Part shown: positions 6,086 through 62,050 of the stretch, piece after piece
Numbering within the stretch: position 1 is the first letter of the stretch
How the letters are laid out: every line of letters starts with the position of its first letter
Assembly: GCA_050084515.1 (NCBI GenBank)
Contig: CM114271.1
Coordinates: 31,000,001-31,064,000 of the forward strand
DNA: 64,000 nt
DNA from: Blasia pusilla
Taxonomy: Eukaryota
Direction: 5' to 3'
Translations under genes and position numbers: made by a program
The notes under the pieces: generated by a model
The model's database searches: none
Told to the model about the DNA's origin: nothing
Seen by the model: the letters and a program-made list of their open reading frames with translations, nothing else

Positions 6086-8977
6086 CATTTAGGCTATTTT
6101 GTGTCTGAATCGGAAGGCCAAAATCAGTGATCGCTACACATAGAGTTGATACCTAGTAAATCTCATGCTCTCCTACTGAGGTGGTTGCGGCTGATGTTCA
6201 GAAGGTTGTTGTTGGGCTACTTGTTGTTGCTAATGTTGTTCTGCCTTCAATTTTTGCTGTTGTGTCTATTGCTATTGTTACTGTTGCAGCAATTGTTGTT
6301 TATGTTGTTGAAGTAAAAGTTGTTGTTGCTATAGCTATTGCTATAGCATTTCTTGCTGCTTATGTTATTGGTGTTGCTTATCACAACATTAACATTAGTG
6401 TCTTTCTCCATCACCCATTCATCTATATGATTCAGATCATCCTTTGGGTCTTTCCGCTCATGGAGGTCACCTTCTAGGTGTGGCCCTACTTTGGTTACGT
6501 GCTCTCTATGCTCCTCAGAATCGTCAACAACAGAAGCCTCGTGCATAATACTTGTATCAAGCCATGTCTAAATTTCCACTTCCTAAGGAGAGGTCCATCA
6601 CCTCTTTCTAGATGAAGCAACAAACTTGGAGACATTTGTAACTTGCACAATAGAGCTCCAACTGCATCAAAACCCACCTTAAGAGCATTGGAAACTAACT
6701 CATAGGAAGATACTAGAGAATAATCAAATAGATTAGGTGCATATTCACTATTATCCAAAGGATGAATATTTCCCCATACATGGTCTTCCTTATTGTGGGA
6801 GTGGCCAACCTTCAAGCCCTCTAGTCCACATGCACTCCAAGCGTGGAAGAGACAATTCATGCCAGCAACACTATATATCCAACAAACTTCCAAAATCAAA
6901 GCTTCTTTCATGGCTACTCATGCCCCCTTTCTTGTTGAAAAATATCTCAAAACAATCAAAACCTATCAAGTGAAATGAAAATTGGAGATATGGAAACTTG
7001 TCCCAAAACACACAAATTAGGAGCACAATGCAATGACAAGACACGTTAACATCATGGAAAGCTTGAGCATATATCATTTTCTTCTCTATGAGAGTTGCAA
7101 CATTGCCATCAACAGAGTTAGCACTGGTCATCATATGCCAACGTTAATGTAATGTACAAGTGGTTTTAAAATTGATCTTTATACAGTAATTTAATGAGTT
7201 TGTTCCTCAAGAGGATCACGATTATGTGAAAAGAGAGGTCAAGATGTCGTTTATCTTGCAATAGTTGTAATTAAGTGTGTATAATTCAGATTCAATGACT
7301 TATCAATGTCTTCAGAGCTCTCTTTGTACCAAGATTTCTTTCCTCTATTCTCTCTAGTAGAGTTGAAATCACGCTCAGGTAGATCTTTCACTCAACATCA
7401 AAGAACCTCATAGAGACCTCAACAAGAAGCTGGCTTCTCCTACTTTCGGAACTTAATCCGTCTAGGCAGGCTACTCTTTGTCAAACAAATTTCTTACAAC
7501 TCCGTGTTGATTATTCTATTGATGAAAAGGTTCTCCTGATTCACTCTTTACTCTGCAGACCCAATAAGAATACTCAGACATATGCATCGCACATCAGAAT
7601 GAAGAAATGAGTACTTTACTACTCCATCAAGAATGAGAAAGCTTCAAAAGTATATACAAACACGAGAGGGTACTACTCTCTTGCTCAGACCATTCCTACA
7701 GCATAAGGAGTTCGTGAGAGAATGATGATGATCGCTACTTTCATGCTTCTTAAATATTCTCCAGAGTAGGAGTGGTTCTAAGGATTCGAAGCGTTCTTGA
7801 GGAATCTGTTGTCTCTTCAACATTTGTAACTACCTAGATCTATGGTACTCTTTTCTTTTCCTATGATCCCTGTAAATCCGTTGAGCGTAATGGTACTAAC
7901 TTCCTATCTAATACAAAAAGTCATGCCTCTTCCTAGTCTAACTGTTCTATCAGTATGCCGCTTGAAATCACTTCGAGTCTTAGCTTTGCTTCGTTGCGAA
8001 GTGTGGACCTCTTTTGCTTCCCTTGATTACGAAGCGCTGCATTCTTCGCTCTGGTTTCAAGTGCTTTGTGCTTCATGCTTTGCTGAAGAGCGAAGTACTT
8101 CTTCCTCTTCTTTTTCATCATGCTTCGTTCAAGAGCGAAGCACTTCATGAACAAGTTCTGAATAGGGCTTCGTTGACTTTTCCAAGCTTTGATGTGAGTC
8201 TTTAGACTTGGTTACTGCATTTCCCTCTCCTCTAAGGCAAATTCTTGATCTTCCACCTCTCTGCCTTGTCCTAGGAGCTTTGTGATCTCTTTCAATATTA
8301 CTCATTCTTCTACTACACAAACATAATATCCAAAATCATTATGTATACACAAGTTTTCTTCGAATAAAAATCTCTAATCTTCAAAAGTACAAAATTGCGG
8401 GCATCATTGTTAACTAGAGCTTCCACAACCAAAAAAACCATGAAACTTTTGAGGGTAGAACAATATGGGCCCTTCATTCATATATTGGGAAGAAGACATC
8501 GACTTAATCTGCAATAATCTCAATTGCAACTAGGATGTATGAGTATGACCACAAGGATTTGACAACCATTAGTTGAGGAGATGATTCTTTGAGAACATTA
8601 GAAGAGCTTGTTCGTGCTTATTAGAGTTTCTTGTGAATGAAATTGGAGGCCATAAAGTAGTTAAGTTTAAGAATCAATAGCAATTATTTGTAGTCAATTT
8701 GTGACCCAAACTTGCAACCACTTTAACCAATCCATTGCAAGCTCAATGTAAGTCTTTGCAGTTTGTCGTGCGCATATATATCGCTACACAACATACATCA
8801 CTGGTCACATCTACACCACACAACACCAATCTTCCCCACACATGGGTCGATCCATACATGTACAAAAATCAACTCATACATATACATGGAGATCATATAA
8901 CCGCCCCCCTAGCTGGCAGTTGGATCCCCCCAACTCCAGATAGAAAATATCACATCTCTCTAACATGACCTACTACC

Positions 8978-10230
8978 CTATACACATCTCGGACACATCC
9001 ATCGTCCCCTGGGAACCACATCTAGAGGGGTGGTCAGACATGACATATGCCACCCTCGAGAACAACCATCACATACCAACATGGTGGCTGCACCCCTCGC
9101 AGATCCGCACAACATACACCTCAAGCCTGCAAGTACCACTGCCAAGCTCGGATCCACTGTCCCATTAACGTTCGAAAGATGACATGGCGCACAATTGCGC
9201 ACATGATCCTTCCAAACCATACCATCCCGTCCCTCCAACATGAGGACTCCGGTCGGTAATACCTCGCGCACATGTAGGATCGTGCGCCCTGCAGTGACAT
9301 CTAACGTTGTGGATGCCGCCTGCTGTAAATACACGTAATCTCCAGGATGAAACCTCCTAATCCTTGGACGATAACCTCCTCCATGAATGGTCGCGTACCT
9401 CAATGTATCTCTATGCTGGGCAATAGCTAAGTTCTCAAAGGCCATAGGCATAACTCTACGAAAAACTTCTGCCCTCTGAGAACATGCTTGTATCCACACA
9501 TCTGGATCATCAAGATCTAACACCTCCGCCATGTCACGTCGAATCGTTGCAAGTAAATCTGGCTCTCTCCCAAAGAGCAAAAAGTATGGTGAAAATGATG
9601 CCAAGGATGCCTGCCGACTAAAGCGATAACCCATAGCCAACATGGCAACTGTAGGTCCCACTCCCTCAACTGTCCCCGCTGCAAGCCATACTTGCGCAAT
9701 CCTCTCTTCACCGTCTGTACCACTCTCTCCGCCAACCCATCCGCCTCAAGATGATCTCTGGACGTGGTGCAGTGATCTATCAGCGCCTGATCACACAAGG
9801 CCTGAAAACTCTCCCCTGAACTCGGTACCCTGGTCAGTCAACACCTCCGCCGGTGCACCAAAGTGACTGAGCACACGATCTAGAAATGCATAAGTTGTTC
9901 CCTTGCTCGCCTTGTCTGGTAGTGCCACCAACTCTATCCACTTGGAGAAATGCTCCACCATGGCAAAAGTCCCGCAAAGTCTAAACTCCACCGATAACCT
10001 AAACCCATAATCGGCAAAGGATGTAACTGCGGAGTGGGAGCATTGAAGGATGCTCGCACTCTGTCACATACCATACATCTGGCCACAAACTGCTGTATCC
10101 CAGTATGCATGCCGCGCCACCAATACTGAACATGGAGTAAGCTGTAAGTACGCTTTACTCCGAAATGTCCCAGCTCCTCATGGGCATGTCGCACTTCACG
10201 TGCTTGCTGGGAAGGATGAGGTACCACTCG
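8978..10230 (-). pseudogene. Integrase with C-terminal PHD finger
   Basis: HHCC motif (HEELGHFG...CMVC), WSLDFAG, LTDQGTEF, DGLAERVVQT, SPYFLLFGR; terminal CMLC...LVCDGCSRGWHMSC...WMCPRC matches C4HC3 PHD. Confidence 0.9.
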
Positions 10231-11261
10231 TGTTGTGCACCTACTCTCCTTGAACGTTAATCTTGTTTGTTGCGGAAGCGTGCTTTCAGTAGGTCACGCT
10301 CTCAACGCTGATCTGCATCCAAACACGCACTTTGGTTAGTCGGGTCTTGGATCAATCAGCGGGGTTACTTTCCGAGTTCTTGTCTCGGACTCTCATCAAG
10401 CTCAACCTTCCTAGTTTCGCGGTTTCCAACACGGGCAAATCTCGAAAGACTTGGGAGAAACTTTCTGATCGGTTCAGGAACCTGAAACGGCGTTTCGCGC
10501 CTAGCGGTTCCAACTGTCCGATGGACATCCAATGATTTCCTCACCAAGACTCGCACAAAGTGAATCTCGGGTTGGAATCCAAGTGTGGCGTACAAAGCCC
10601 ACTCCCTTGGATCAGGTTTGGGTTTCAGGTTCCCGCGCCAAACTCCCGTTCCATCCCGTGCCTCTTAAACGCCGTTTGGCGCCCAAAGTGGGGATTCATT
10701 TCCCGAGACATCTTGGAGAGGGTCCTCCCTTACTAGTACTTCTGGGGATCTCCGGGGGCCCCCTACATTTAGGGAAAGACACCCGGGCCTCTCCAATTGG
10801 CCCTCAACCCGATTGCTCTCTCAATCGTTTTCGGCCAATATCTCAGCCTTTACTTATGCGTTTGCTAAGATCTTTGGTGCGTTGGAAGCATCTCAAGATC
10901 AGCTTTCCAACGCGCCCTTATTTGTCTCGAACGCATCTTGGAGCTCAACGTTATGGTCCTCAACACAGTCAGATTCTCCCAAACGCTAGTCGTGTTCCAA
11001 ACTGGTTCTCACCTCTTTGGCAACCAACCTCCCAAGACTCAACTCATCTCAAGTCTTGGCTCGCGTTTGGTCTAGGTTTCCTGTTTGCGACCACTAACGC
11101 ATGAAACGCACAACTCTGTTCCGCGTTTCGTCTCTTAGACTTTTCCAAGAGACTTATCCAAACGCCTCTCCAAAGCGCAAACCTCGCAGCGTGAGTTCCT
11201 TTGAGTTCTCATGTTTCGCTTGGTGCCTATTTGTTGTTGTTTGGTTATGAGGGTCACGACA
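10231..11261. mobile_element. Solo LTR (1031 bp) inserted in the Gypsy pol just upstream of the integrase HHCC motif
   Basis: TGTTGTG...CACGACA termini and perfect 5-bp TSD ACTCG (10226-10230, 11262-11266). Removing it restores the GRIRVVPHPS reading frame. Confidence 0.9.
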
Positions 11262-11605
11262 ACTCGTATCCTACCATCTCCCCATACCCGCAAAATGTGA
11301 GTCCCCTCCCACCTGAACCTCTTGGCTCTTTGTAGGATCCGATCCCGCTCCCTAGCACTCACTGGACTCGCAATGACGCCAGTGCCCAAGAAATCCACAA
11401 CCTCCACGTCGTCATGGATATCACGACCACCTGTCGCCTCCTCACTAACCTCCGGATCCAAAGACTCATCATCCAACCCCACCACTGGAATCATCACCTG
11501 TGGCTGACCTGCCATATTCAACCAACAAAGATAGGTAGATGTATGCCAATCGGGCACCATCTCCTCATCACTCTCTCCGTGCCATCGAGCTCCTGTATCG
11601 TCTCT

Positions 11606-12978
11606 CTAACTCGAACATGGGTTACGACTCAACCTATCCGCATCCTGGTTCAGCCGACTTGGCCTATGAACCATCTCAAACTCATACTCATGTAGTAATA
11701 GAGCCCACTTGGCAAGCTTGCCCGTAAGCTTGTCGGACTCCATCAACCACCTCAACGGCTGATAATCAGTGATAAGTGTGAAAGGGTTGCCGAATAAATA
11801 GCACCTAAAATGTGCCACGGCCCACACTGCAGCCAAGCACTCTCCCTTGTAGGAGCTGTACTTCGCCTCTGCAATTTTTTTCGATCGGCTCGCGTAAGCC
11901 GCAACGAACTCCCTCTCCTTGTCATCCCTGTGAGTAAACACTGCTCCTAGACCCAACATGCTCCAATCCGTATGTAACTGGAATGGGCGACCCCTAACCG
12001 GTCTCTGTAAAATGGGTGAGGACGTCAACGTGTCCTTGAGCAATGCTCGCTCCTGATCATCTCCCCACAACCAAACCTGATCAAGTCTCGTCAACAAGGT
12101 CAAAGACTTTGAGATTGCACTAAAACCCTTGACATACCGTCGATAGAAGTTCGCCAGTCCAAGAAATGCTCGGACTTGACTCACATCTGTAGGGCGTGGA
12201 ATCTGCGCAATAGCCTCTACCTTCATTTTCTGAACGCCTAACCCACTCGGGTATATGGTGTGTCCCAAGTACTCAATCTGCTCTTGAAAGAATCTGCACT
12301 TGCCTGGATGTAACTTGGTCCATGTTCTCGCAATTGTGAAACACCTCCTCCAAGTGTCGCTCATGCTCCTCAACCGTGGAATTGAAGATAAGAATATCAT
12401 CTATGTAACATCGTACAAAATCCAAGCCAGCCAGAATCCTATCTATCACTCTCTGAAACTCTGCAGGCGCGTTCTTCAACCCAAATGGTAAGAACCGCCA
12501 CTGATACGAGCAATCTCTCCCGAACCGATCTATCTCCCGACGAATCTTTGTCTTCTCCTATCCTCCAACCTGATAGGAAGCGATGATAGCCAAGACGAGA
12601 TCTAAATATCAAGATCTTTACATGTCCTACCGTATCAAAGATCTCCTCAGGAGTAGGGATGGCGTACTGATCTGACCTCGTCTGTCGGTTGATGAGACGG
12701 TAATCTCCACACATCCGCCTATCCGTCCAATTGCCATACATATCCTTCTTTGCAGGCATGACTGTGGCAGATGCATACTCCCCATGTGATAACTCCATAA
12801 GTCCTGCCTCCAACAAGTCCTGACTCCTTCTCTGAATCAAGGTCCGCTCCATATCAAAATACCTGTAGGATTGACGAAAGATTGGCGTATCACTAGCCAA
12901 CTCAATCCTTATCCCGGGATCCTTCAGCGTACCGAAGTCTCTCATACTGAAGTCAAAACAACTGACATGCCCTCTCAA
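11606..12978 (-). pseudogene. Reverse transcriptase and RNase H of the Gypsy element
   Basis: RRMCGDYRLIN, KNAPAEFQR, CYIDDILI, FLGLANFYRRYV, LHTDWS, GECLAAVWAV, LITDYQPL, NQDADRLSR. Several frameshifts. Confidence 0.95.
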
Positions 12979-13359
12979 AAACCTATGAACTCGCCGTCGC
13001 TCTCCTCATATCAACTTGAGACCTATCATAGGCTCCCAAGTCTCCATCGTGACCTCACTTGGAGAGGACGCAACCTCCGACTTTGGTTGCTATGTAGCAA
13101 CCCTAGCCACCTCTGCAACAGCCACTCCACTCTGACCTCCTACACCATGCTCCACATCCGAAAAATGAACATGTGCTACTCTAGCCGCCTTCGCACTCTC
13201 TGTTTGAACGACGTCCCAGGAAGTCCATGGGTGCCTATCTCTCCTCGTCTCGTCCCCAGCCAATGGCTGTACAGACCCTGTAGGCAATGGTCCAACTCGT
13301 GGACGTGACAGCATGGATGACACTCGCATCCGTCTCTGCTCAGCCATACCTAGGCTGAC

Positions 13360-14310
13360 TATCCATGTGAGAGAGTTGAGGTCCATCGCCTGCCCCAACA
13401 TCTATCTCCGGGATGCCTCACTCATCCCTGGCACCGCCGTAGTACCGGTAGTAAACCCCACGGCGCGCTCGCGCTCATCTGCTATACGCTCCTCCAATGC
13501 TCCAGTCACCTCATCCCAAATCATGCCTGGCCCTCCCTGACAAAAGGCATGGGATGCTGGGAAGCTCACCAACGTAGGTAAGGCTGCCCTCAACTCCCCC
13601 ACCCTATTGGCCGTGGCCAACGGTGGTCTATCATCCCGTGTCACCACCTGAGATCGATGCCCTGAGCCCAAAATAGCATCCACTGTGAGATGTGGTGCTC
13701 TCTGGACTCCACTGTATGCTCGACTCAGTACCTCTCATGGTATCAGGTTCGTCCACCACAGTCGTGGACGATGGGCACGTGAACCAACTCTCGCTGCATC
13801 TAACAACATAGAAGGTCCCAAGCAAGACCTCACCTGATGTACACTCGTCATCACACGTGCATGAGTGTCTCCCAACAATGGCACGTTCTCCAAAATGTAC
13901 GCTGGAGAACATATCTTACTCTTCTGCAAGTGTCGTAATACTTGCAGCATCTCCCAAAACATCCCTGACCTCGGAAGCTGCAATCCAAATCCTCGCCCTG
14001 CTGATGAATGACCTTGACATGGCCATCCAGCAATCACCAAATGAATGGTGCCAACTCTATCCAGATCCTGCGCCCCCACCAAAGAGATGTCGGTGGGTAG
14101 CGTATGCTGATATCCACGTACTGCAGATACCGGCAACAACTCAGGATACCTTTGGACCAATCTCGCCACGTGACATAATGATACTTGCCGCACGGTCTCA
14201 TCTCTCTCCACATAAAGGTATTGATGCATTCGTATGCCCGCCTGCAATAGTGCAGCCAATCTGGTGCTTATCCCTCCGAAGAGATCTAACACCCAAACAC
14301 CCTCCTCTAG
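13360..14310 (-). pseudogene. DNMT3/DRM-like C5-cytosine DNA methyltransferase domain embedded in the Gypsy pol
   Basis: Motif I VLDLFGGIS, II YLYVE, IV IAGWPCQGHS (catalytic PC), VI YILENV, VIII RAHRPRLWWTNL, IX ERERAVGF, X MLGQAMD. Split by a frameshift and stops. Confidence 0.9.
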
Positions 14311-14445
14311 GCACTCCCATACAACAGGTGTGGTATCTAGTGGGGTCAACGTCTCCACTCCAAGAGCCCGATCGCCACGTGACTCTCGCTGCTCTGGAAT
14401 AAAAACATGACTCCACGCCTGCCTCACGAGGTCCTCGGCACTCCT

Positions 14446-15156
14446 CTATAGCTCTCGAGTCGTACCCCACAATGGTGAAGAGGCCTCGCCAACATGGGAA
14501 GAGACACCCGCCATGGCCTGTCTCTCCATGGGACTATCCGCTACTGGGACATTCTCTGCATGTGCGTTCCCCTCCAACAACTCTCCTAGCCAGCTAATAC
14601 TACCTGTGAAAGCTGCCAACGTAGTCATAGACTCGCCTCGTGATCGACCACCTCGTCCCGCAAACTGCACAGGTAACTGACTCATCCGGCCGTCACCTGA
14701 TCGACATCTTGGCCAATAAGCAACGGTCTCCTCCTCGAAGTCAAGGATGAATCCTAGGGGATATAACACTGTACTCCCCACCAACACATCATACGACTCA
14801 TCTGATATCGTAATCGCACGTGTGCGCACCATAGCACTATCCGTCGCATGCTCTGGCTGGACTCTAACAACAATCTCCTGTCGAGTCATATATTGAGTGG
14901 ATGATACGCCCCCAATCGAGGTCTGTATCTGGAAGGGACAAGGCTTAATGTCGGCCTTCCGTAACCCCAACGCTAAACACGCCGCCTTCCCTAACATCAA
15001 GGGTTGTGCTCCCGAATCAAGTAGGATGCGCTGCGGATGGTATACTGTCCCCGTCGGACTAACCAAGCAAAATACTCCAGCTCGATTATCCAGTAACACT
15101 ACTCCAGGTGTCACCACTGCTCGCTCTATGGCCGGTCGAGCTAGCATATCTACCAA
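14446..15156 (-). pseudogene. Retroviral-type aspartic protease plus linker
   Basis: ILLDSGAQPLML catalytic DSG motif and downstream YDVLVG motif. Confidence 0.85.
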
Positions 15157-15180
15157 CTTCGCCGCCGCCGCATGCCATGA

Positions 15181-17005
15181 CTATGGGGAACGCCCCAAGA
15201 CACGGCTCGAGGGCAAGTCCGCCACCTCCTCAACTACCTTTGAACAAGAAGCAGTCATCTCTCCATGCTCACACAACATGGCGGCCAACCGGAACACCTC
15301 AGCTGGTCCAACTCCCAACGTCGCCAACTCTATGGCGGAAAATAGTGGAGTCTGACTCACTCTGGTGGCCACCTCCAACACTATGGTCGACACTGACTCC
15401 ACTAGAGCCACCATAGGAGTTTTCACTCCAACTCCTCGTGACCTCGGCGTGAGGTGCCTCGAGGCGAGGCACCGTTGGTCGTCGAGGCACCATCGATGGT
15501 GTGTGTAGTGCCTCTGACAATGTGAACGACTGTGGAACCCTGGCCTGCTGCCCATCGGTCCCCTCTGGTGGGTCAATCTCAACTCCACCTCTTGATGGCT
15601 CGGTGCCTCTCGCGACTCGAGTCACCACCGCACCGCTCCAGCCTGGCTGCACTACACATAAATCCCATACTGGCGAGATCCTCACCCGGGTCAGGGTAAG
15701 AGGTAGAAGCTGGAGTCACACTAGCTGCTCGCAGATCCATGCCTTCCCTAAGCTGCATCATCGTCATGGCAGCAATCCTCTGCTCCAACTGATCGATGCG
15801 TAAGAGAAGTGCCGGCTCTGGTGCTCCTGCTCCATCTCCTCTGGCTGGTGGTGGTCCTCTACCACCACGTCTAGGAAAAACTCCCCAACCTCCTCCAGGA
15901 CGATCGCCCCCAGGCCCTCAACCTACCTCTGGACGTGCCCCTCGGCGAAGGTCAAAACATCTATCCCTAGTGTGACCATATCTGTAGCAATTGTCACATT
16001 GGTGCTGTGGTGGGGGCATCCTCTGTGGCTCTTGAGAAATTGGAGGCGCTGGTGGTCCTCTCCCATGATGTGGGCAGTCTCTCTGCCTATGGGCCCCTCC
16101 ACACATCCAACAAGACCACATCGGTCCCTGCTGGGCAACATATGTAGGTACGGGTTGTTGCCTCATAGGCTCACGGTACCCGCCCTGCTCTCTAGGCACG
16201 CTGGCCCACTCCCGTGGTACTGGTGCTCGCTGTGGAACCTGTGGGGTCACCGTCGCTCGTGGACCCGTCGACTCTCGAGAAAATCCAGCGGTCACTACCT
16301 ACTCCTCACTCATGTTGAGCTCAATACGCTCAGACAACTCAAAGACCACCTTCAATGTGGGCTTTGTTGTGTGAATCAGCACCGCATCTCGGACTCTTCT
16401 CGGTCCAGAACCCCGTACCAATATTGGACTGACTGCGCCCTAGTCACTCCAAAAAAAGCAGTGATCAGCCTCCTCATGCGTGTGAATGCCTCTCTCAGAG
16501 TCTCACCCGATCGTCGCTGAAAATTCTTTAGACTCTTCAGCTTGTCGGTGCGTACGCCCTAGTAGCTCTTCCCCAACTGTCGGAAGAACTCCACTGTGGG
16601 GTTGAAGCTGGGTGGCCCTCTACCACTAGAGGTCTGTGCCACATCGCCTCTCTTACTACCCTCCTCTCCATCTAGTCTCCGGGCAGATGGTGTGGGTCTC
16701 TCTCCCCTCACAATCCCATCATATGCCTCGCGACTACTAGTCGACACATACCCTAGAGCCCAATACATCCTCCAGGCATCGATCTCTACTGAATATAGTG
16801 ATTGAAACTCCATGTAGTCATCCATCGGAGGACCCTCCAAGTGCTGGAACAACCCCTTCCATGCCATGAAAGGGTTGAACCATGTCGGGGTCCGTATCTC
16901 TTGGAAGTCGCACCATGTGTCAAACTCCTTGATAAAATCATCTAAGTCGATGGTGTCCACTACACCCGAGAAACGACGCATGCCCCGATGGCCCATGTCG
17001 TCCAT
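15181..17005 (-). pseudogene. Gag of the Gypsy element (frameshifted), with two zinc knuckles
   Basis: RFSGVVDTIDLDDFIKEFDTWC capsid-like start; CWMCGGAHRQRDC and CDNCYRYGHTRDRC knuckles in ORF 15918..16295. Confidence 0.75.
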
Positions 17006-19799
17006 CTCCTACCAAGTACTACTGTCTCTGTCTGTGATCTCGTCGCCAGACCCAATGTCGAGTGATGACGATCCAGCCACGAATGGATGTCGAGGTAGCT
17101 CCTCACTGGTAACCCCTCAGTATCTCACTCCGCTCCGTGTCACACCACTACTACTGCTCGCACTACCCCGTTCTTCCGAACCCTAGAAGAACGCCGTGAT
17201 GACAAACCCTGTCTCACCCGCTCAAGCACTCAGACTCACCGAGAGTCTCCCACATGCCTCACTAGCTCACCTATGCTAACATCAATCCCGTGATGACATA
17301 CCCGGCCTCACGCACGCTCAACACTCGGGCTCACCATGAGCCTCCCAATTGACTCACCTAACCTAGCGACACTCTCTCGGGTCATACACGTGACCCCTAC
17401 TCGGCAACCACCGTATATCCACCAACATGCTACACATGAAAAGAATCTACACTTGTCACCATCACTGCAGCCACCTAGCACCAGCTACTATCCGATACCC
17501 AACACTCTCAATCACACACGACAAGTGCGGGAAAAGCGACTCGAATGGGTAACCTGATCAGGCCCTCCAACCTGCTGCACTGTCAACATGCACTCCTCCA
17601 CATGATATGACAATCTCCACAACACAACACTCTCCTCGACCAACACGTGGATCCTCCGTCAACAGATGCGGACAACATGTCGGCATCATGCGCACTGCCC
17701 CTCCATCGTCAACTCTCGCAACGCCCTGTCGCGCCCCAAAACATCATGTCACGCCCGCTGTCCAACTATGTCGGTCACTCACCACGTCGACATCCTCCCT
17801 GCCATCACGTTGCCCATGCGCAACCGTGTTTGCCGGACCGACCTCGTCCGTCCTACCACGTTCGCCGCTACAACTGCACCACATCCACTCCTACCACGTT
17901 GGAGGGGGGGTGGGAACTTGGCCCGCGGCCCTATGCAAGCCCCTTGGGCCCTAAATGCGGGGGGGCCTGGCCCGCACCCCTATGGGCCTCCCCAACTTTT
18001 GGGAAGGGAGCAATAAATGGGGGAGGGGGGGGCACGCGCTCTTATGCGCGCCTCCCACCTCGGGGGGGGGGGGGGGGCGTGCCATCCGCCGTCCGCCACC
18101 GTCTGTCGGCGCCCGCCGACCAAAACGCCTGTCAGCGCCCCCGGCGGCTACAAGCCCTAACCCTCTTTTCTTCTCGCTCTCGACACCCTCACTCGCGTGC
18201 ATCCGACGCTCCACCGCACACTACATTCGGCTGCTATCCCGCGTCAATCCGTACCAGCAAAATCTGAAAAAAATGGACAGGGCTTCCGCCCACGGCCTTC
18301 CAAACAGAAAATGACAAACACCCGCAACACACACATCTCCAGGGGCTCCCGACCAAGGCAACTCGCTTGCCTACCTGCAAACAACGAATTCCCACCAGCC
18401 CACTGACATCTTTCTCATGTAAAAATAAAGAGTAGTAAAAACGGCACACTCGGCCTAAAACTCCACTCGGCCTAAATCTACATCGGCATATCGAGCCTCG
18501 TCCACCCTGTGCTATCAAGGAATCCGGACGCTAGCACCCTAGTCCTATCTCACACACATACAAGGGAGGTGCTCCAACAGCCCAACATGAGAAAGATGGC
18601 TTAGGAAAGCCATCTTCCTCTCTTATATAGGGTTGGGAAGAGCCAAAAGGCTCATCCCCTAAAAATAGCCCTCCCCTTGGTAACCTGCGAGCACAGGTTA
18701 CCAGGGGCGGGTGACCTGGTCAATAAGTCACCAGGCTGTAAAAGACCTCAACATGAAAGTTTTCAGAAACGACGTTCCTGACACAATGGACCTATCCTCA
18801 ACCTCATCCATCACCGTGGGACAAAGTTACACTCAAGATAGTCCGCTGGCTCCTACGCCCTATCCACGATAGATCTTGGCCTATCGGCTACTCAGATGTG
18901 ACAAGTCGCACTTGGAAAATGGTTGTTTGGAATCATAACCTTGTGTTAAGTCATGTAATGGAGTCATACAAATTCGAATAAGAAATTGAAAGTGGTAACG
19001 GAGTAGCCAAATAGTTGCTCTTGGAAAAAATGAAATTGCAATATTGGAGCTACATTGCTACGTTTACCCATATTAGTGGCAAATGGTTGAGATAGCAATT
19101 ACAAGAAGAGGAATGAGCAAGAAGACATTACTTCAATGGTGAGCTTTATTTATGGAAGGGAAATTACAATCCAAAATTTTCCCTCCAATCCATCTTCTAA
19201 CATTAAGGTTAGGGTTTGGATTATTGATCTTTTAGGGATTTTGGGTTGCTTGCGTGTGTCTTGCGAGTCAAATTGTCACTTGTAGCTGCAAGAAAGTCAC
19301 CCATCTGAGTGACGTGATGGTCTTGTGGCTCTCGCTATTCGAATAAACTATGGCAATGTTACTCGCAACACTGCAAAAAAAACCACAAAAAAACTCAGTT
19401 GCGAGAAAGTCGCAAAACAAATTGGCAGACCTACCCTCTATGGATCCCTTGTGCACCTTCATTTTCCTCATTTCACAGTTGCTTGCATGCGTGAGGGAGA
19501 GCCCTCTAGGAGTGGTTTCAGAAACCCACTGGAGCGGGATACATTTTCCGGGGCCATTGATGAGACGGTTAACATTCTTAGAATGTATGAGTCAATGAAA
19601 TTTTAGAATGTTTAACTAACTATGTGGGCGTATCATATAGTTCATTAAGTATGGCAAGTACCCCACTCCCAAGCAAGGTTGCACGAAAACGTAAAAGTCC
19701 ATCCATGGGACAGACATATCTGAACATGACCACGGACATGGAACACCGGGCGCGAGCACGAGTATTTTTGGCGCCCAGATTAACCGCGTGGGCTCCACT

Positions 19800-20650
19800 T
19801 GCGGGCCACCGATGCGGGCTCTGATGAAGGGTGCAGGCTTCAATCATGACGCGGGCTGCTTGCAGACTTAGGAGCCCGCATTCGGGCTAGGGTGCGGCCC
19901 TAAAGCTTGCATCCGGACTACTTGCGGGCCGCCAAGCCCGTGTGCGGGCTACTTGCAAGCCTTGCAGCCTGCGCGTGGCCTCGTTGCGGGCCCTAGAGAC
20001 CGCGTGCGGGCTGCTTGCGGACCTAGGAGCCACTATGCAAGCTAGGTTGCGGGCCCTAAAGCCCAAATCTAGGCTGATTGCGGGCCTTGGAGACTTCTTG
20101 CGGGCTATGTCACAGGCCGCCAAGCCTGTGCGCTCGCTTGTTGTGGGTCCTAGAGCCTGCGTGCGGGCTTAGGTGCGAGCTTGATGCGAGCAGTGAAGTC
20201 CGAGCTGCTTACGGGCTATGAAGCCCGGGCTGCTTGCAAGCTTGGGAGCCCACATGCGGACTACAATGCGGGCTTGCATGCAGGCCTCCGAGCCCGCGCG
20301 GAGGCTAGTTGCGGGCCCTAGAGCCCGCGCGCAAGCTCCTTGCGAGCTTTGGAGCCCACCTGCGCGCTATGTTGCGGAATCGTTGCGGGCTCATTGCGGG
20401 CTCCTGCGCAAGCTACTTGCGGGCTTACCAGCCTACAAGGGTGCGGGTTGCTTGCGGGCCTAAGAGCCCGCGCGCAGGCTTGGCGGCCCGCATCCATGAG
20501 CTAGTTGCGGGCCCTGGAGCCCACATGCTCTCGCCTAAACCCCACATATGGCCCGCATCGGGGGCTCGCCCTAAGGCTCGCATGCAAGCTGTGAGCCCGC
20601 GCACGGGCTTCTTGCGGGCCGTGCAAGTGAGTGGTTGTGGGCGGGCCCTA
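19800..20650. repeat. GC-rich subterminal repeats (GCGGGC/GCCCGC) at the left end of the hAT
   Basis: Dozens of TGCGGGC/GAGCCCGC motifs in both orientations; similar motifs at 30850-31200. Confidence 0.8.
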
Positions 20651-32811: not shown

Positions 32812-34731
32812 TCAAGCGTCCTCAGGGCGGCTGTCGAAGTTCGTGACGAGGCGAACTCCGGCCCAACGGAGGGACAGTTCGATGTCCATGACATCTCGGA
32901 GATACGGTGCTCGATCTGAGATGTTCCCCACGGGCGGATCTTGGAAAGGGCAGTCCCACATGGTGGTCGAGGTCTGCTGGGCAACGTCCACCGTTCTCCC
33001 CCGCACGCAAGGCTCCAGCTTGGTCCCGTTGGGTGGATCTTCCATGAACTCGATGAAGTAGGGAGTGATCGCTCCGTAGGCCTGCGCCAGGCCTCCGAAG
33101 GTGGAGAGCGGGGTGATGAGGAGTTGGTCGGAGAAGCTGAGCAGAAAGATTTCCGAGAACGCTTGTACGTCTTCGTTTTCGTCGTGCAAGATCTGCTTCT
33201 GTTGGCTCGTCAGCTGCACCACGCTCACGTCCTCTCCCGTCACGGTGATGGGATTTTCTAGATACGGTTTGGAGATGTGATCGAACAAGTCACGGAACAA
33301 TGATGCGATGTAAACCATGATGACGGGAGATCGCTTGATGGAATCGAGCGACTGCTCCGGTGCGGTCTTCAGTTTCATCTGGGAGAACCGGGGAAGAATG
33401 CCCTCCTTCCACAGGCACTCGATGATGCGGGTGTCGATTAGCGTCTCCATGCGGTTCTTCATATCCACGCCGTCTCTGAACCGCAACTGAATTCCCACTC
33501 GGCGATCTGCCGCGCTGAGCAGGTAAGCGTGGTTGAGATGCTTCACTCGAGTCCAGACTGTCTCACTCGGCAGCGCGACGCTTCTTACCAGTCTCGTCAG
33601 TACCATCCGGTCTGGAAACAAGGCCTCCAGAGCCGGCATGAAGGTAGGAGTCGTGAAGATTCGGGGAACTGTGTTTATGTACCCGCTCCACAACACGAAA
33701 GGAACCTGGGCGTAGTACTCTTGCTCTGCCGTGCAGTAGAATCTGGAAAGTGGTTGATAATCATGGGTGAGTTCCGGGGAACCCACCACCGCGTAATCTT
33801 GAGACCTCCAGGGAAACGTCGCATTTTCATCCTTGTAGCTTTCGAACACGGATAGCGACTTCTGTGCTGCCAAATTCGAAGATGCATTACGACCGAACTG
33901 CTTAACATGCTCATCTATTTCACGGAAGAATTCCTCATCATCCTTCCACCCGGAAAGATCAAATCCGAACCAACCATGACCATTATAGCGAGGTAGGGGG
34001 AAATCAGAACGTATTAGCCAAGACGAACCCATGAAAGGCTCGCAGGTGTTATCCGGTAAAAGGCTTCGAGTGGCCAACAGCAAGATTCTCTGCGTGGAAA
34101 TTGCATATAGAAAGGCAGAAGCTAGAACCAAGACCTTGTTCCCCATTCCCGTGCCTTCGGCAGGATCTGTAATCAAGAACTTGCAACCAGGTATGTCTTG
34201 CCGCTCACGATAGTACCTAGTGATGTCCGGGATCTTCTTCGTGCAAGCCCGGTGGAGTTCGGAGTACTCCTCCATGACTTGGTCCCACGCTGGGTTCGCG
34301 GGAAGATGGTTGACGTGCTTTCTCTCATTAAACATGATTGGCAGCTCCAATCGGCTGGCACACGGATTGCGACTCTGCCATTCCTCTCTCTCCTTGTCAC
34401 TGATTTTCTCCATCACTCCCTCAGTCACCATTCTCCGAGTTTTCTGGAGCGCCTCAAGCAACAACGAACCGTCAGCTGCAGGCAGCTGGCTTCGTGAATG
34501 CTTCTCATGTTGATACCCTTCAGACCTTGGCTGTGAAGAATCTCTAGAAAAGCTTTCCGAAGAAGTAAACGGCACTGGAGCAGTTTCTGGAACAACACGA
34601 AATTTGATCATGCGACTTAAGGCGCGATATTGTGGCAATGCAAACCATTCGGATATCACAATGAGAAATATCGCCAGCAGAAAAATGCGATAGATAGCTG
34701 AGAGACGACATGACTCCGCTGGTTTATCCAT
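32812..34731 (-). CDS. FUT: GT37-family galactoside 2-alpha-L-fucosyltransferase (xyloglucan/AGP FUT-like), 639 aa, single exon
   Basis: Intact ORF; N-terminal type II TM segment; GMGNKVLVLASAFLYA, CEPFMGSSWL, VGIQLR, FSEIFLLSFSDQLLITPLSTFGGLAQAYG motifs. Confidence 0.93.
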   Translation of the reverse strand: MDKPAESCRLSAIYRIFLLAIFLIVISEWFALPQYRALSRMIKFRVVPETAPVPFTSSESFSRDSSQPRSEGYQHEKHSRSQLPAADGSLLLEALQKTRRMVTEGVMEKISDKEREEWQSRNPCASRLELPIMFNERKHVNHLPANPAWDQVMEEYSELHRACTKKIPDITRYYRERQDIPGCKFLITDPAEGTGMGNKVLVLASAFLYAISTQRILLLATRSLLPDNTCEPFMGSSWLIRSDFPLPRYNGHGWFGFDLSGWKDDEEFFREIDEHVKQFGRNASSNLAAQKSLSVFESYKDENATFPWRSQDYAVVGSPELTHDYQPLSRFYCTAEQEYYAQVPFVLWSGYINTVPRIFTTPTFMPALEALFPDRMVLTRLVRSVALPSETVWTRVKHLNHAYLLSAADRRVGIQLRFRDGVDMKNRMETLIDTRIIECLWKEGILPRFSQMKLKTAPEQSLDSIKRSPVIMVYIASLFRDLFDHISKPYLENPITVTGEDVSVVQLTSQQKQILHDENEDVQAFSEIFLLSFSDQLLITPLSTFGGLAQAYGAITPYFIEFMEDPPNGTKLEPCVRGRTVDVAQQTSTTMWDCPFQDPPVGNISDRAPYLRDVMDIELSLRWAGVRLVTNFDSRPEDA

Positions 34732-35102
34732 GAGAAAAGTGCACTCCTGCCTGACTGAATCCCTGGAAGTTTGGCCCGGGTCCCGTGCTGTGGAGACCGA
34801 TCCTACTTATATAGCTCTCTTTGCTTGAAACTCTAACAAGCTGCAACGAATTTTCCCCGGATTCCGTGAGTATACTCGAGTCAGCGCCGTTCTTGACGTT
34901 GGAGGTCAAGTTTACCAATTTTGGAACGAGAGCTGCACGCATAGGAATGGTAGTGCACTTACTTCTACGTCTCATGAACCCATCACGTCGGATCTTTCAA
35001 AGTCTCATGAATCTGTGACTGGGGATCGAATTCCCTTCCATTGCCCACAACGTCCCTACTCCCGCCATTCGCCATAACGTCGTGGACATTCACTCTGGAA
35101 TC

Positions 35103-58684: not shown

Positions 58685-61600
58685 TGCAAAATCCTAAATC
58701 TGACATTTCAAACTCAGATTTCAACACTCCCTTTATTTCCTCTATTTTCTTATTGTGGTCTCCTGTGATGATAAGATCATCCACATACAGGACTATCAAA
58801 ATATACATCCCATCTTCGCAAAACACATACAAATTTTCTTCCGACGGACTCTTGATGAGACCCTTCTCTCGAAAAATGTATCTATTTGTTGATACTATAA
58901 CCTTGGGGCTTGCTTCAACCCATACAATGCTCGATGAAGTAAACATATTTTCTCTTCTAATCTCAGTGTCTCAAAACTTGGTGGTTGAGATACATACACC
59001 TCCTCCTTGAGACTCCCGTTCACATCGTATTGGTATACATGCCAACAACTTGTTCCAGCAACCGCTAGAACAATTCAACTGGTTGTCATCCTTGAAGTAG
59101 GAGCAAAAGTCTCATAGTAGTCAAAACCTTTGATTTGTGAGCATCCTTGTGCAACCAACCTCGCTTTGAATTTATCCAATGTACCGTATGACTTGTACTT
59201 GGTCTTGTACACCCACTTGGTGCGTATTCTCTTCCTGTCCTTTGGCTTCTCAACCAAAGTCAAAGTTTCATTTCTCTGAATAGCGTCCATCTCCATCTGC
59301 ATGGCCTCTCTCCATTGAGGATGAGCAAGGGCCTCATCCAAGCATGATGGCTCTTCCACCTTCAAGACCTATGTCATCAAGGCCATGTTGACGAGATGTG
59401 CGGAAGCTCTATTCTGCTCTTCTAGTCTCTTGGATCTCCTTGGATGTGTAACAACTTCATCAGTTGTTGGTGGATCCTTACCATCCAAGAGCTCCTTTAT
59501 CCACTTAGGGTATGACGACCGTAGTGGAAGAGCACGCTGCTCTCTGTAATCATCACCAAATTCTTCTTCTTGAGGATCTGGTGTAAACATTGGTGGTGTG
59601 CTCTGGTGGGTTATCTCTTTGTTTGATGATAATGTGGACGGACCACTGATATCCGCCACTTGACGAGGCTGTTCCTAGAACACCATATCACGACTCACAA
59701 GCATCATCTTTGCCTCAGGACACCATAGGCGATAAGCTTAGGATTCATCACGCTATCCCATAAAGGTGCACTTCTTGCTCTTAGACTCCAGCTTGGTCAT
59801 GGATGCTTCAGGAATATGTACAAAGCACTCACTACCAAAAGTCCTAAAATGTTGGACTGATGGTACCTTACCTGAGTATGATTGATGAGGAGTCATGCCT
59901 TACATTGACTTGGTAGCACTTCTATTTAGAATATAAACGACAGTATTAACAGCTTCAGCCCAAAATCCTTTTGTCAAATCCTTCTTTCATCATACATCTT
60001 GCCATCCCCACCACTTTACAGTTTTCACGCTCAACAACTTCATTTTTTTGTGGTATATGTGTTGTGGTTAACTGTCGCTTGATTCCATGCTCCCCCAAAT
60101 ATTTGTTGAATTCTGTTGATAAGAATTCTCCTCCTCGATTGGTGCAAAGCTTTTGAACCTTCTTTCCTGTCTCATTCTCAACCAGCTTGTGCCATACTTT
60201 AAATTTTCCAAAAGCACTTACCTTATCACGAAGGAAATATACCCACATCTTCCTACTATAATCGTCGATAACTAAAAAGAAGTAGAAAGAACCACCTAAT
60301 GCCATTGTTCTCATTTTACCACAAAGGTCAGCATGAATGAGCACTAGAGGAGCCTTTGCTCTCTTGCTGGACCCTTGTGGAAATGGTTGTCGGTGTTGCT
60401 TGCCCATCATACAAGCTTCACATGTATCCGACACTCTAGAAATTGTTGGTAAATCAACAACCATGCTAGATTTCTCCATCTGACTTACTAAGGGAAAGCT
60501 TAGGTGACCAAATCTTTCCTGCCACAACTTACTACTACTAAGATCTGTACCTACACTTGTCGTGAAAGCATACAACTCGTAGATATTTCCACGTTGTATA
60601 TCTTCATCCACTACTTTCCCATTGGCATCCTCAATGACTGCTCCAGTTTTCTTGAAACAAACTTCTAGGTCACGATCACATAATACTATTAAGCACCCAT
60701 GCATCTTCACTCTTTGACTTAGTGGAATGTTCTGCCTATGTGCAAAACTCTTCGATTGCTACCCAAGCATCTACTTCATGTTCTCCTAGTTCTACAGAAT
60801 TTCCAGACTCCTTCTTAGGTCTTAAACAACCGTTCTTCTCATCCTGACTCCTCTTTCTACAATCTTTGATAAGAGGACCTAGCTTACCACAATAAAAGCA
60901 TTTGAAGGCTTTCCTTGGAAATTTCTTCTTGACATTTGAATTGTAATCCTGATTTCTACCTCTGTGTACGTTGGTAGTAAATGTTGCATCACTTCTCTCT
61001 CTTGCTTTGAAGCGCATTTCCTCTTCTACCAACATTGCACCAAATTGTTCAAAAGTAAGCAGGGTGGATTTTACTTGAGTATTCAATGCCATGACCAAAC
61101 TATCATACCTTGGAGGCAAAATCCTTATGCACCGACGTGCCAAATCTTTGCTAGACTTTGAAATTCCTACGAATGCCATCTGATCTTGAAGATTCTTGTT
61201 CCTTGTCAAAAATTGCTCCGCACTTTCTCCTTTTGAAAATTTCTCAGACGTGAGCTGATTCTCTAGATTCTGAATCCAACTCTCATTCCTCGTTTCACAC
61301 TGATTCTTCAGAATATTCCACGCCTCAGCAGCAGCGGTTATATGTTGAATGAGAGTCATGACAAAATCAGTTACATTCCTGACAATCGCATATAGAGCAT
61401 TAGCATTTATGTGTTTCCATGCCAGCAATACAACAAGATCGATATCCCCAGATGAAGATAAACATGCAAAATTCAAAGTAGCTTGTGGATTCGAATTGAT
61501 CCTTGTGGCCATCTCCCAGATCTCAAATGATTCGAGGACAGTTCTCATTTTGAACTTCCACAATGTATAGTTAGACCCATCTAACTTCCCTTCACCCAGC

Positions 61601-62050
61601 GGAGGAGGGCGAGCACGAACTGACGAAGAAGTAGCAATCTCTCAAGATTTTGTGCAAACACACTAGATCGCCAGATACAAAATACTGGAAAATCTACTGC
61701 TCTGATACCATGTGAGAAAACAGAAAGTGAAAAAATCACATAAATCTTTACAAAAATTAGAGATACAAAGTGACCTAGTCCGTCCGTACGCTCACACAAG
61801 AGCTTCGATGAAACCTGAACATGGAGATAACTCGATATACGAGAATCCGCTACCGCTGCGGCTCCCGACTATTTCACTACTCGGGAAACTAGGGTTTTTA
61901 CCTATTTTTCTTCATTTCTATTAATAGAAAATTTCTATTAGTAGGGTTAGATAATCCTAGTAACGCAACTCCTGAAACCACTTACGTCATATTCCTATGA
62001 CTCCTTTGACGTCTAAGTCGAAACCATCAATGTAGGCTTCTCCTCATACA
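58685..62050 (-). mobile_element. Ty1/Copia retrotransposon, 3'-truncated and internally deleted (5' LTR ~61711-62050, gag, integrase, partial RT)
   Basis: PBS TGGTATCAGAGC; gag WKFKMRTVL and CFYCGKLG knuckle; integrase LIHADLCG, VIDDYSR, NRGGEF, VVEREN; RT KWVYKTK, KARLVAQG, LYVDDLII, EFEMSDLG. Confidence 0.92.
61699..61710 (-). other. Primer-binding site (initiator Met tRNA) of the Copia element
   Basis: TGGTATCAGAGC immediately follows ...CTCACA (LTR end) on the minus strand. Confidence 0.9.

Follow-up and report, generated by a model that had tools for sequence, protein, structure and literature searches.

A probable dead copy of a high-copy, DNMT3-bearing retroelement family with Gypsy-type genes and split direct repeats in Blasia pusilla

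The 64,000-nucleotide stretch of Blasia pusilla DNA analysed here (hereafter the window; contig CM114271.1 of assembly GCA_050084515.1, positions 31,000,001 to 31,064,000) contains, on its minus strand between 18903 and 8764, a degraded retroelement that encodes a cytosine methyltransferase. In identity and anatomy, the locus is very probably a dead copy, approximately 10.1 kb long, of a high-copy family of DNMT3-bearing retroelements. The gene order is gag, protease (PR), C5 cytosine methyltransferase (DNMT), reverse transcriptase (RT), RNase H (RH), integrase (IN) and PHD finger, and every pol-type open reading frame (ORF) listed from 18.9 kb to 8.8 kb lies on the minus strand. The genes of the family are Ty3/gypsy-like, yet its ends are split direct repeats. 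It is unusual, and little understood, for a retrotransposon to carry the enzyme with which hosts silence it; in the literature searched, retrotransposons with a DNMT have been described from dinoflagellates and one charophyte, and they are reported here also from liverworts, mosses and green algae.

A first-pass annotation of the window, made from its letters, had placed a Ty3/Gypsy retrotransposon with a C5 methyltransferase between protease and RT at 8764-18903. These limits are borne out by reads from one genomic run and three RNA runs of the same organism, mapped to 7000-20500 at 85% likeness, whose junctions start and stop precisely at 18903 and 8764, and by a 4-bp target-site duplication, in which GACT at the 5' end (18904-18907) matches AACT at the 3' end (8760-8763) at three of four bases. 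The placement of the methyltransferase is confirmed by its Pfam match and by translation of a single minus frame, 15180-12439, which runs from the protease string LLDSGAQP through the C5 methyltransferase motifs to the start of RT.

The methyltransferase domain occupies 13093-14445 (minus strand) and forms the C-terminal part of the first ORF, as assigned from Pfam, translation, a family profile and the predicted fold of a relative. Direct translation recovers the full set of motifs that had been noted on the pol strand: DLFGGIS (14286-14266), GWPCQG (14028-14011) and ILENV (approximately 13896-13882), with RAHRPRLWWTNL, ERERAVGF and LGQAMD downstream in the same frame. We take these strings to be the motifs numbered I to X. 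On this assignment the catalytic motifs I (FxGxG), IV (PC), VI (ENV), VIII, IX and X occur in that order, so the domain is not circularly permuted, unlike DRM, and the same motifs are invariant or nearly so in alignments of 15 and 54 rows. PF00145 matched the ORF at 14445-13735 with 35.6 bits against a cut-off of 22 (E 9.4e-9), and the read-through peptide, with X at stops, with 33.6 bits; intact relatives reached 49 bits (L006) and 51.1 bits (L033). The first-pass annotation had proposed this profile as a check and a missing match as counter-evidence; the match lies above the gathering cut-off.

Among sequences of solved structures, the nearest to the window domain are DNMT3B/3A (E 1.2e-5 to 2e-5), followed by DRM2 (E 0.016). 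A profile of 15 family members, searched against solved structures, matched DNMT3A best (E 2e-23), then DNMT3B/3C (approximately 4e-21), plant DRM (E 2e-14 to 1.8e-10), M.HaeIII/M.HhaI (approximately 1e-7) and DNMT2 (approximately 1e-5), with no match to DNMT1 among these structures at E <= 0.01. Furthermore, the DNMT ORF of the near-intact relative L006 was modelled by AlphaFold with a 54-row alignment (predicted local distance difference test score, pLDDT, 86.3; predicted template-modelling score, pTM, 0.81). In a Foldseek search with this model, 30 of the 30 chains among the matches listed (ranks 1-50) were DNMT3A/3B/3C, with E down to 1.3e-19 and target-normalised template-modelling scores of 0.78-0.84 for catalytic-domain chains. 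With DNMT3A/B/C first and DRM second by sequence and predicted fold, the window enzyme is predicted to be of DNMT3 type, in keeping with the DNMT3-like wording of the annotation.

The remaining parts of the element follow in order along the minus strand. A1, the 5' split-repeat unit (18421-18903), begins TGTCAC, is delimited by read junctions and has a DNA depth of about 1550 versus about 1100 in the interior. Next to it lies a 5' non-coding region (17057-18420), which contains a copy-private or highly variable segment at 17824-18274, rich in G/C homopolymers, with a read depth of 57 versus 670-1550 on either side. The gag gene, with CCHC knuckles, lies in three frames at 15485-17056 (tblastn with near-intact L006; frames -1, -3 and -1). 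CCHC-like strings are found in its ORF 16298-15918, and ORF1 of L006 matches PF00098. The aspartic protease region (14449-15417, DSG at 15018-15010) was assigned from translation and from tblastn with L006; at the equivalent position in the intact relative L033, PF13650/PF13975 match weakly, below their cut-offs. RT and RNase H, with which ORF2 starts, extend over 11262-13083 (PF17917 and PF17919; RT_RNaseH at 12400-11606). They are followed by the integrase with its H2C2 zinc finger and DDE core at 9517-10230 (PF17921, Integrase_H2C2, in ORF 10293-9934) and by the integrase C-terminal region at 8978-9516. A PHD finger (approximately 9118-8984; PF00628, 41.6 bits, E 1.2e-10) terminates the integrase ORF (9745-8978), and a C-terminal PHD is likewise present in ORF2 of intact L033 and in 40 of 103 long relatives. 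A polypurine-like G run, AGGGGGGCGG (8901-8910), stands immediately upstream of B1, the 3' split-repeat unit (8764-8895), which ends CGACA, is delimited by read junctions and loose ends, and is homologous to the B ends of L003, L045 and L027. In summary of class, the PR-RT-RNase H-integrase order of Ty3/gypsy elements with RT_RNaseH, H2C2 and rve domains is present, with the DNMT added between PR and RT, as are TG..CA termini (TGTC...GACA) with a short target duplication. Two identical flanking long terminal repeats (LTRs) are absent, self-comparison of the window having found no LTR pair. No tyrosine recombinase was found by Pfam in the window, L006, L033 or P0266, all of which have the H2C2 and rve integrase instead.

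The DNMT ends in the window at a stop codon (13092-13090) within the context TAG CAA CCA (13084-13092). The DNMT-to-RT junction was located in 39 copies, and every one of them has a stop at this codon (26 TAG and 13 TAA, each followed by CAA). This count leaves aside 16 of the 55 rows of the boundary motif scan, which were dropped as off-target hits in other frames or places (15 with 'TGA CAA CT/TT' in L053-type loci and one other). The boundary stop is also present in two more remote copies that are intact (TAG CAG TTA in L033 and TAG CAA TCA in L036), and annotated Marchantia and Calypogeia proteins terminate at the DNMT/RT boundary. The stop at 13092-13090 is a conserved family feature and not damage. 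Since 41 of 41 copies share it, the element has two ORFs divided at this point: gag-PR-DNMT (ORF1) and RT-RH-IN-PHD (ORF2). Intact L033 has an ORF1 of 1369 amino acids (weak aspartic protease, DNMT) and an ORF2 of 1047 amino acids (RT, RNase H, H2C2, rve, PHD), while L006 has 957, 438 and 766 codons in one frame, interrupted by two stops only. A further in-frame TAG between PR and DNMT (14446-14448) is not family-wide on copy comparison: this codon is a stop in 5 of 28 copies including the window, two more copies have a stop one codon earlier, and most others have Gln. PR and DNMT were therefore continuous in origin.

The type I read-through motif of plant RNA viruses is given as UAG CAR YYA in the accessible text of PMC11166343. 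The boundary stops of the window, L006, L080, L033 and L036 fit this motif (contexts CAA CCA, CAA CTA, CAG TTA and CAA TCA), and ORF2 is probably made by stop-codon read-through. Several points speak against it: the full CAR YYA match is confined to 5 of 41 copies, the other 36 having CAA CCC or CAA CTC; the boundary codon is TAA in 13 of 39 copies; and the case is made from codon context alone. In the largest, Sphagnum-like subfamily the context is CAA CCC (or CAA CTC), and approximately one third of copies have TAA. If read-through at UAG/UAA-CAA gives the ORF2 product, then the methyltransferase, being part of the Gag-PR-DNMT product, would be made at a Gag-like rather than a Pol-like level.

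The window copy itself is dead, as the first-pass annotation had held, which is evident from private stops, frame changes, a deletion and an insertion. Its attribution of the stops to decay stands for the private ones and fails for 13092-13090. The PR-DNMT-RT frame has five in-frame stops: the family stop and four that are damage, either private or recurrent. Private stops lie inside the DNMT (13737-13735 and 13404-13402) and in the RT region (13008-13006). Translation of the DNMT segment gave in-frame stops only and none of the frameshifts previously supposed there. At least seven frame changes are spread across gag, RT and integrase, those in RT lying near 12577-12533 and 12339-12316, with private 1-nt indels at 12541 and 12329 relative to the read majority. 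The integrase has lost approximately 28 nt at 9961, where 470 reads hold 31 extra letters, and has private indels at 9805 and 9640. Furthermore, the integrase is interrupted by an unrelated high-copy insert of 1036 bp at 10226-11261 (plus strand). Its reading as a solo-LTR insertion is supported by 672 DNA reads that skip it, by TG..CA ends and by a 5-6-bp duplication, ACTCG(T). The insert is itself high-copy (depth about 1100), is transcribed opposite to its host element and holds a 199-amino-acid ORF at 10505-11104.

Summed DNA depth was 1048-1103 in the DNMT bins, 957-1110 in gag and 1273-1296 in RT, versus 2.4-2.6 in the single-copy flank (two bins). This amounts to approximately 400 family copies at a likeness of at least 85%, with coverage of the DNMT similar to that of gag and a little below that of RT. 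Of the 103,921 mapped DNA reads, only 216 were at least 99% like the window copy, which is therefore an old, diverged member. RNA reads were almost all sense to the element, with depths of 2.4-9.6 in the DNMT bins and 15-49 in the RT/integrase bins, and RNA on the insert at 10226-11261 had the opposite orientation, serving as an internal strand control. The family is transcribed, DNMT part included. The left flank (7000-8760) is repetitive too, with a DNA depth of 135-584 versus 2.4-2.6 in the right flank.

A HMMER search of the DNMT against 1.84 billion cluster representatives matched 2377 proteins when E <= 1e-3 was allowed. At E <= 1e-30 the count was 223, each standing for a cluster at 50% identity, and polyproteins of 1000-3400 residues were frequent among the matches. 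Named relatives include many 'hypothetical proteins' of Marchantia polymorpha (52-64% identity) and proteins of Calypogeia fissa, Riccia sorocarpa, four Sphagnum species, Closterium sp. and Scenedesmus sp.; no Klebsormidium protein was among the named matches listed. The Marchantia proteins P0173 and P0176 have the order DNMT, RT, RNase H. Contigs from Joint Genome Institute (JGI) metagenomes gave 241 relative-encoding stretches, of which 80 were kept as loci, and the DNMT lies approximately 1.95 kb upstream of RNase H in 47 of the 48 loci that hold both domains. A small number of host genomes probably supplied many of these loci, so their copies do not count as independent. The proposal of a multi-copy land-plant family is upheld by read depth and by the liverwort and moss relatives.

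The ends of the family were examined by dividing the element into A (18903-18421), interior (I) and B (8895-8764). In the reads, 387 join 18421 to 8895 with six letters between, approximately 320 over four variants join 8764 to 18903 with GC between, and 2712 have loose ends like a diverged A start. Full related copies are built as A1-internal-B1-NN-A2-B2 with termini TGTC...GACA. In L045 and L027, the A1/A2 pairs are approximately 340 bp long and 92% and 86% identical, and B1/B2 pairs of 112-117 nt lie on both sides of A2. The more distant L053, L057 and L070 show the same order, with A pairs of 289-293 bp and B pairs of 164-185 bp; L065 has a B pair and L003 an A pair. Thus, the reading as a plain LTR element did not hold: the window copy has no LTR pair, and its relatives carry split direct repeats. 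The B1/A2 junction is GACA-NN-TGTC, which in the family of the window forms the perfect palindrome GACAGCTGTC. Flanks vary from locus to locus, and perfect 4-bp duplications lie outside A1 and B2 in L045 (AAGG), L027 (TCTC), L053 (GGTC) and L057 (CCAA), while in L070, as in the window, the duplication matches at three of four bases. From the TGTC...GACA termini and the 4-bp duplications of these relatives, it follows that the DDE integrase inserts full copies. The G run stands ahead of B1 and not ahead of A2, and, as a point against the present account, no canonical tRNA-like primer site was seen beside A1 by eye, a systematic search not having been made.

The window copy has the form A1-I-B1, without A2-B2, A and B being present once each. 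This form may have arisen by recombination between B1 and B2. Alternatively, a one-repeat circle opened at the palindromic B/A junction and then inserted would give A1-I-B1, and a two-repeat circle opened at the same palindrome would give A-I-B-A-B. A broader proposal, speculative and rather doubtful at present, is that a clade of integrase-bearing DNMT3/PHD elements ranging from green algae to bryophytes replicates via circles opened at GACA-NN-TGTC and is still transcribed and perhaps mobile. If true, palindrome opening would yield both the A-internal-B and the A-internal-B-A-B forms, and the presence of the clade in bryophytes including Marchantia polymorpha would make transposon self-methylation genetically testable in a land plant.

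Two simpler accounts of the locus have to be weighed against this anatomy. The A/B layout might have nothing to do with replication: an ordinary LTR element surrounded by nested or tandem LTRs, or an error of assembly, could look the same. A and B are single in the window, B-GC-A junctions could arise from tandem LTRs, and three of the ten loci with enough flank (L028, L066 and L079) lack split repeats; the last point also counts against split repeats as the family's regular ends. Tandem LTRs, however, would not readily account for the A1...B1-A2-B2 order repeated in two diverged subfamilies on separate contigs, for A pairs in six and B pairs in six of the ten loci, with differing flanks, or for the perfect duplications outside A1/B2 in L045, L027, L053 and L057. 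Moreover, internal sequence and not B follows A1, and the G run stands just before B1 (window, L053, L057 and L070). This account is consequently judged improbable. Far less credible, to the point of being negligible, is a one-off capture, in which a single Gypsy copy would have received part of a host DNMT3 gene by insertion or transduction. The first-pass annotation had named a one-off insertion as the outcome that would overturn it, and the window does hold a single copy without an LTR pair. Such a capture is contradicted by a DNMT depth that is near that of gag/pol and approximately 400 times single copy, by the same domain order in the 47 of 48 loci and in the Marchantia proteins, and by the agreement of DNMT and RT trees (below). 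In addition, none of the 15 best-supported read junctions borders the DNMT segment (152 further ones exist).

The history of the family was approached through domain orders and trees. Among 103 relatives of at least 900 residues, the DNMT-before-RT order is found in 10, and 15 have the DNMT alone and are mostly ORF1-like. A second order, RT-RNase H-DNMT-integrase-PHD, is consistent with 78 of the 103 and complete in 40, including Scenedesmus. The DNMT of this second architecture (P0007, P0020, P0021, L078 and others) is homologous to that of the first at 35-45% identity, and the architecture is the commoner of the two; the Scenedesmus 'pol' proteins that have it are 3225 and 4177 amino acids long. 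L078, the sole second-order locus examined for repeats, has its only repeat at the contig ends. One 1974-amino-acid RT-RH-DNMT-IN-PHD polyprotein (P0296) is labelled at NCBI as from a 'Minisyncoccia bacterium' metagenome-assembled genome, and is probably from a eukaryotic contig binned into a bacterial genome.

The separate RT and DNMT trees that had been suggested were built and are concordant. The DNMT tree has 60 rows, hand-picked from 308 DNMT-matching rows, and the RT/RNase H tree has 45. Both place the two domain orders on opposite sides of one branch (Shimodaira-Hasegawa-like approximate likelihood-ratio test, SH-aLRT, 98 and 99), and both share the inner groups: a bryophyte clade (support 100 and 99) to which the window belongs, L033/L036 as sister to that clade, and a group with Closterium. 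The DNMT module has moved once within the polyprotein. Within the bryophyte clade of the DNMT tree, Marchantia and Sphagnum are sisters with Calypogeia outside (support 92), which does not follow host relationships and points to ancient lineages running in parallel or to transfer among bryophytes. In comparisons between subfamilies, pN of the DNMT is 0.16-0.24 versus pS of 0.60-0.74, and dN/dS is 0.09-0.17, with dS near saturation, values that indicate purifying selection. On the evidence of these unrooted trees, the DNMT has been in the element lineage since before its streptophyte branches split. Of the two origins previously envisaged, descent within an old element lineage is preferred to a separate capture by land plants: the groups of the DNMT tree recur in the RT/RNase H tree, and the Closterium element falls on the same side. 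Against this must be set that both trees are unrooted and were built from sequences other than host DNMT3, DRM and those of Klebsormidium.

With respect to function, the best guess, a tentative one drawn by analogy, is that the DNMT methylates CG sites de novo, either in the newly made cDNA of the element itself or at its integration site. Methylation of new cDNA is the published proposal for related elements (main text of PMC5890265). Two observations run counter to it: the Klebsormidium domain gave no methylation in yeast, a result that its authors deem inconclusive (PMC5890265), and the CpG observed/expected ratio of the window element is 0.75 versus 0.68 in the rest of the window, with no clear sign of CpG depletion. 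In near-intact relatives this ratio ranges from 0.28 (L006) to 0.70 (L036). The stretch L006:321-6809 has a CpG ratio of 0.28 and a GpC ratio of 1.18, decayed copies having CpG ratios of 0.57-0.75; the low CpG of L006 would fit long-term CG methylation of an active lineage.

Both the origin and the activity have a competing explanation. Land plants may have gained their DNMT by a convergent capture of their own, in a Gypsy lineage unrelated to the algal elements; recurrent independent captures are the published view (PMC5890265), and the trees lack a Klebsormidium sequence. This is nevertheless considered very unlikely, given that bryophyte, Closterium and algal-type elements share a homologous DNMT (35-45% identity) and related RT/RNase H, that the PHD-tailed integrase and split direct repeats are also common to them, and that the DNMT and RT/RNase H trees agree. 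In addition, the repeat layout fits the figure legend for KnitGypsy-Dnmt3 (PMC5890265). As for activity, the DNMT domain might no longer methylate DNA, acting instead on RNA or having a structural or binding role in the particle. The inactivity of KnitGypsy-Dnmt3 in yeast would agree with this, and RNA methylation has been raised by the same authors for another DNMT-bearing element class (PMC5890265). A loss of DNA methylation sits poorly, however, with catalytic motifs that are near-invariant in 15 and 54 members, with the dN/dS of 0.09-0.17 and with a predicted fold that is a complete DNMT3 catalytic domain, although none of these three observations separates a DNA from an RNA substrate; it is regarded as unlikely, if less so than an independent capture.

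Elsewhere in the window, a degenerate tandem array with a period of approximately 31 bp (TTGCGGGCC...) lies at 19850-20380, just beyond the 5' end of the element. The sole host-type gene identified is at 32812-34806 (minus strand), an uninterrupted ORF of 664 amino acids that matches xyloglucan fucosyltransferase (PF03254, E 9.6e-46) and whose atlas neighbours are Streptophyta. Remains of a Ty1/copia element are present at 59955-61641 (minus strand), with gag (PF14223), a gag-pre-integrase domain and an integrase core.

If the present reading holds, the lineage of Gypsy elements with DNMT3 has a long history and a wide host range, which takes in Scenedesmus, Closterium, liverworts and mosses, and at least one host carries hundreds of copies that are transcribed. 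Marchantia polymorpha would then allow bench tests of the role of the DNMT, of PHD-guided integration and of split-repeat replication. Furthermore, automated 'DNMT3' gene counts in bryophyte annotations may be inflated by such elements.

Gypsy elements with DNMT3 have been published for Klebsormidium (de Mendoza et al., 2018; PMC5890265), and the accessible parts of later texts say just 'streptophytes' (10.64898/2026.05.21.726589; PMC12344493). The literature searched, a body of open main texts that excludes supplements and subscription papers, names no liverwort or moss element, no ORF1 placement of the DNMT and no PHD tail. The closest system is KnitGypsy-Dnmt3 of Klebsormidium nitens, which is described as having Gypsy domains with 'the structure of repeats ... 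of a DIRS retrotransposon' (PMC5890265). Set beside the window family by this published description, it is alike in its non-rearranged Dnmt3-type domain in the pol region of a Gypsy-domain element, in its DIRS-like repeats and in purifying selection (Ka/Ks < 0.2 there, dN/dS 0.09-0.17 here). It differs in its host, the named relatives here belonging to liverworts, mosses and the zygnematophyte Closterium. The account of KnitGypsy-Dnmt3 in the accessible text includes neither a conserved stop at the end of ORF1, nor a PHD-tailed integrase, nor a second, green-algal domain order, and 'PHD' has no match in the main text (PMC5890265). SymbioDIRS-Dnmt3 and SymbioLINE-Dnmt of Symbiodinium are likewise retroelements that encode a C5 DNMT, and the Dnmt3-like domain of SymbioDIRS-Dnmt3 carried out de novo CG methylation in yeast, as given in the same text (PMC5890265). 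These are dinoflagellate elements with a tyrosine recombinase or a LINE endonuclease, whereas the family described here has a DDE integrase and 4-bp target duplications.

The boundary stop resembles type I read-through sites of plant RNA viruses in that five family copies have UAG and CAR YYA between in-frame ORFs; it differs in that the candidate site is known here from context and that the main subfamily has CAA CCC. The ends are like those of PAT/Ngaro elements, with A1 on the left and B1-A2-B2 on the right, downstream of the last gene, as laid out in the consulted part of PMC4157794. Those elements have a tyrosine recombinase, whereas here H2C2 and a DDE integrase are combined with TG..CA-type termini and target duplications. 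Plant chromoviruses are Ty3/gypsy elements with a chromodomain on the integrase. They share with the window family a Gypsy-type PR-RT-RH-IN and a chromatin-reader domain at the integrase C-terminus, and the accessible text of the REXdb survey contains no match for methyltransferase and none for PHD (Neumann et al., 2019; PMC6317226). In place of the chromodomain, the family represented in the window carries a PHD finger, together with a DNMT and ends that are not plain LTRs.

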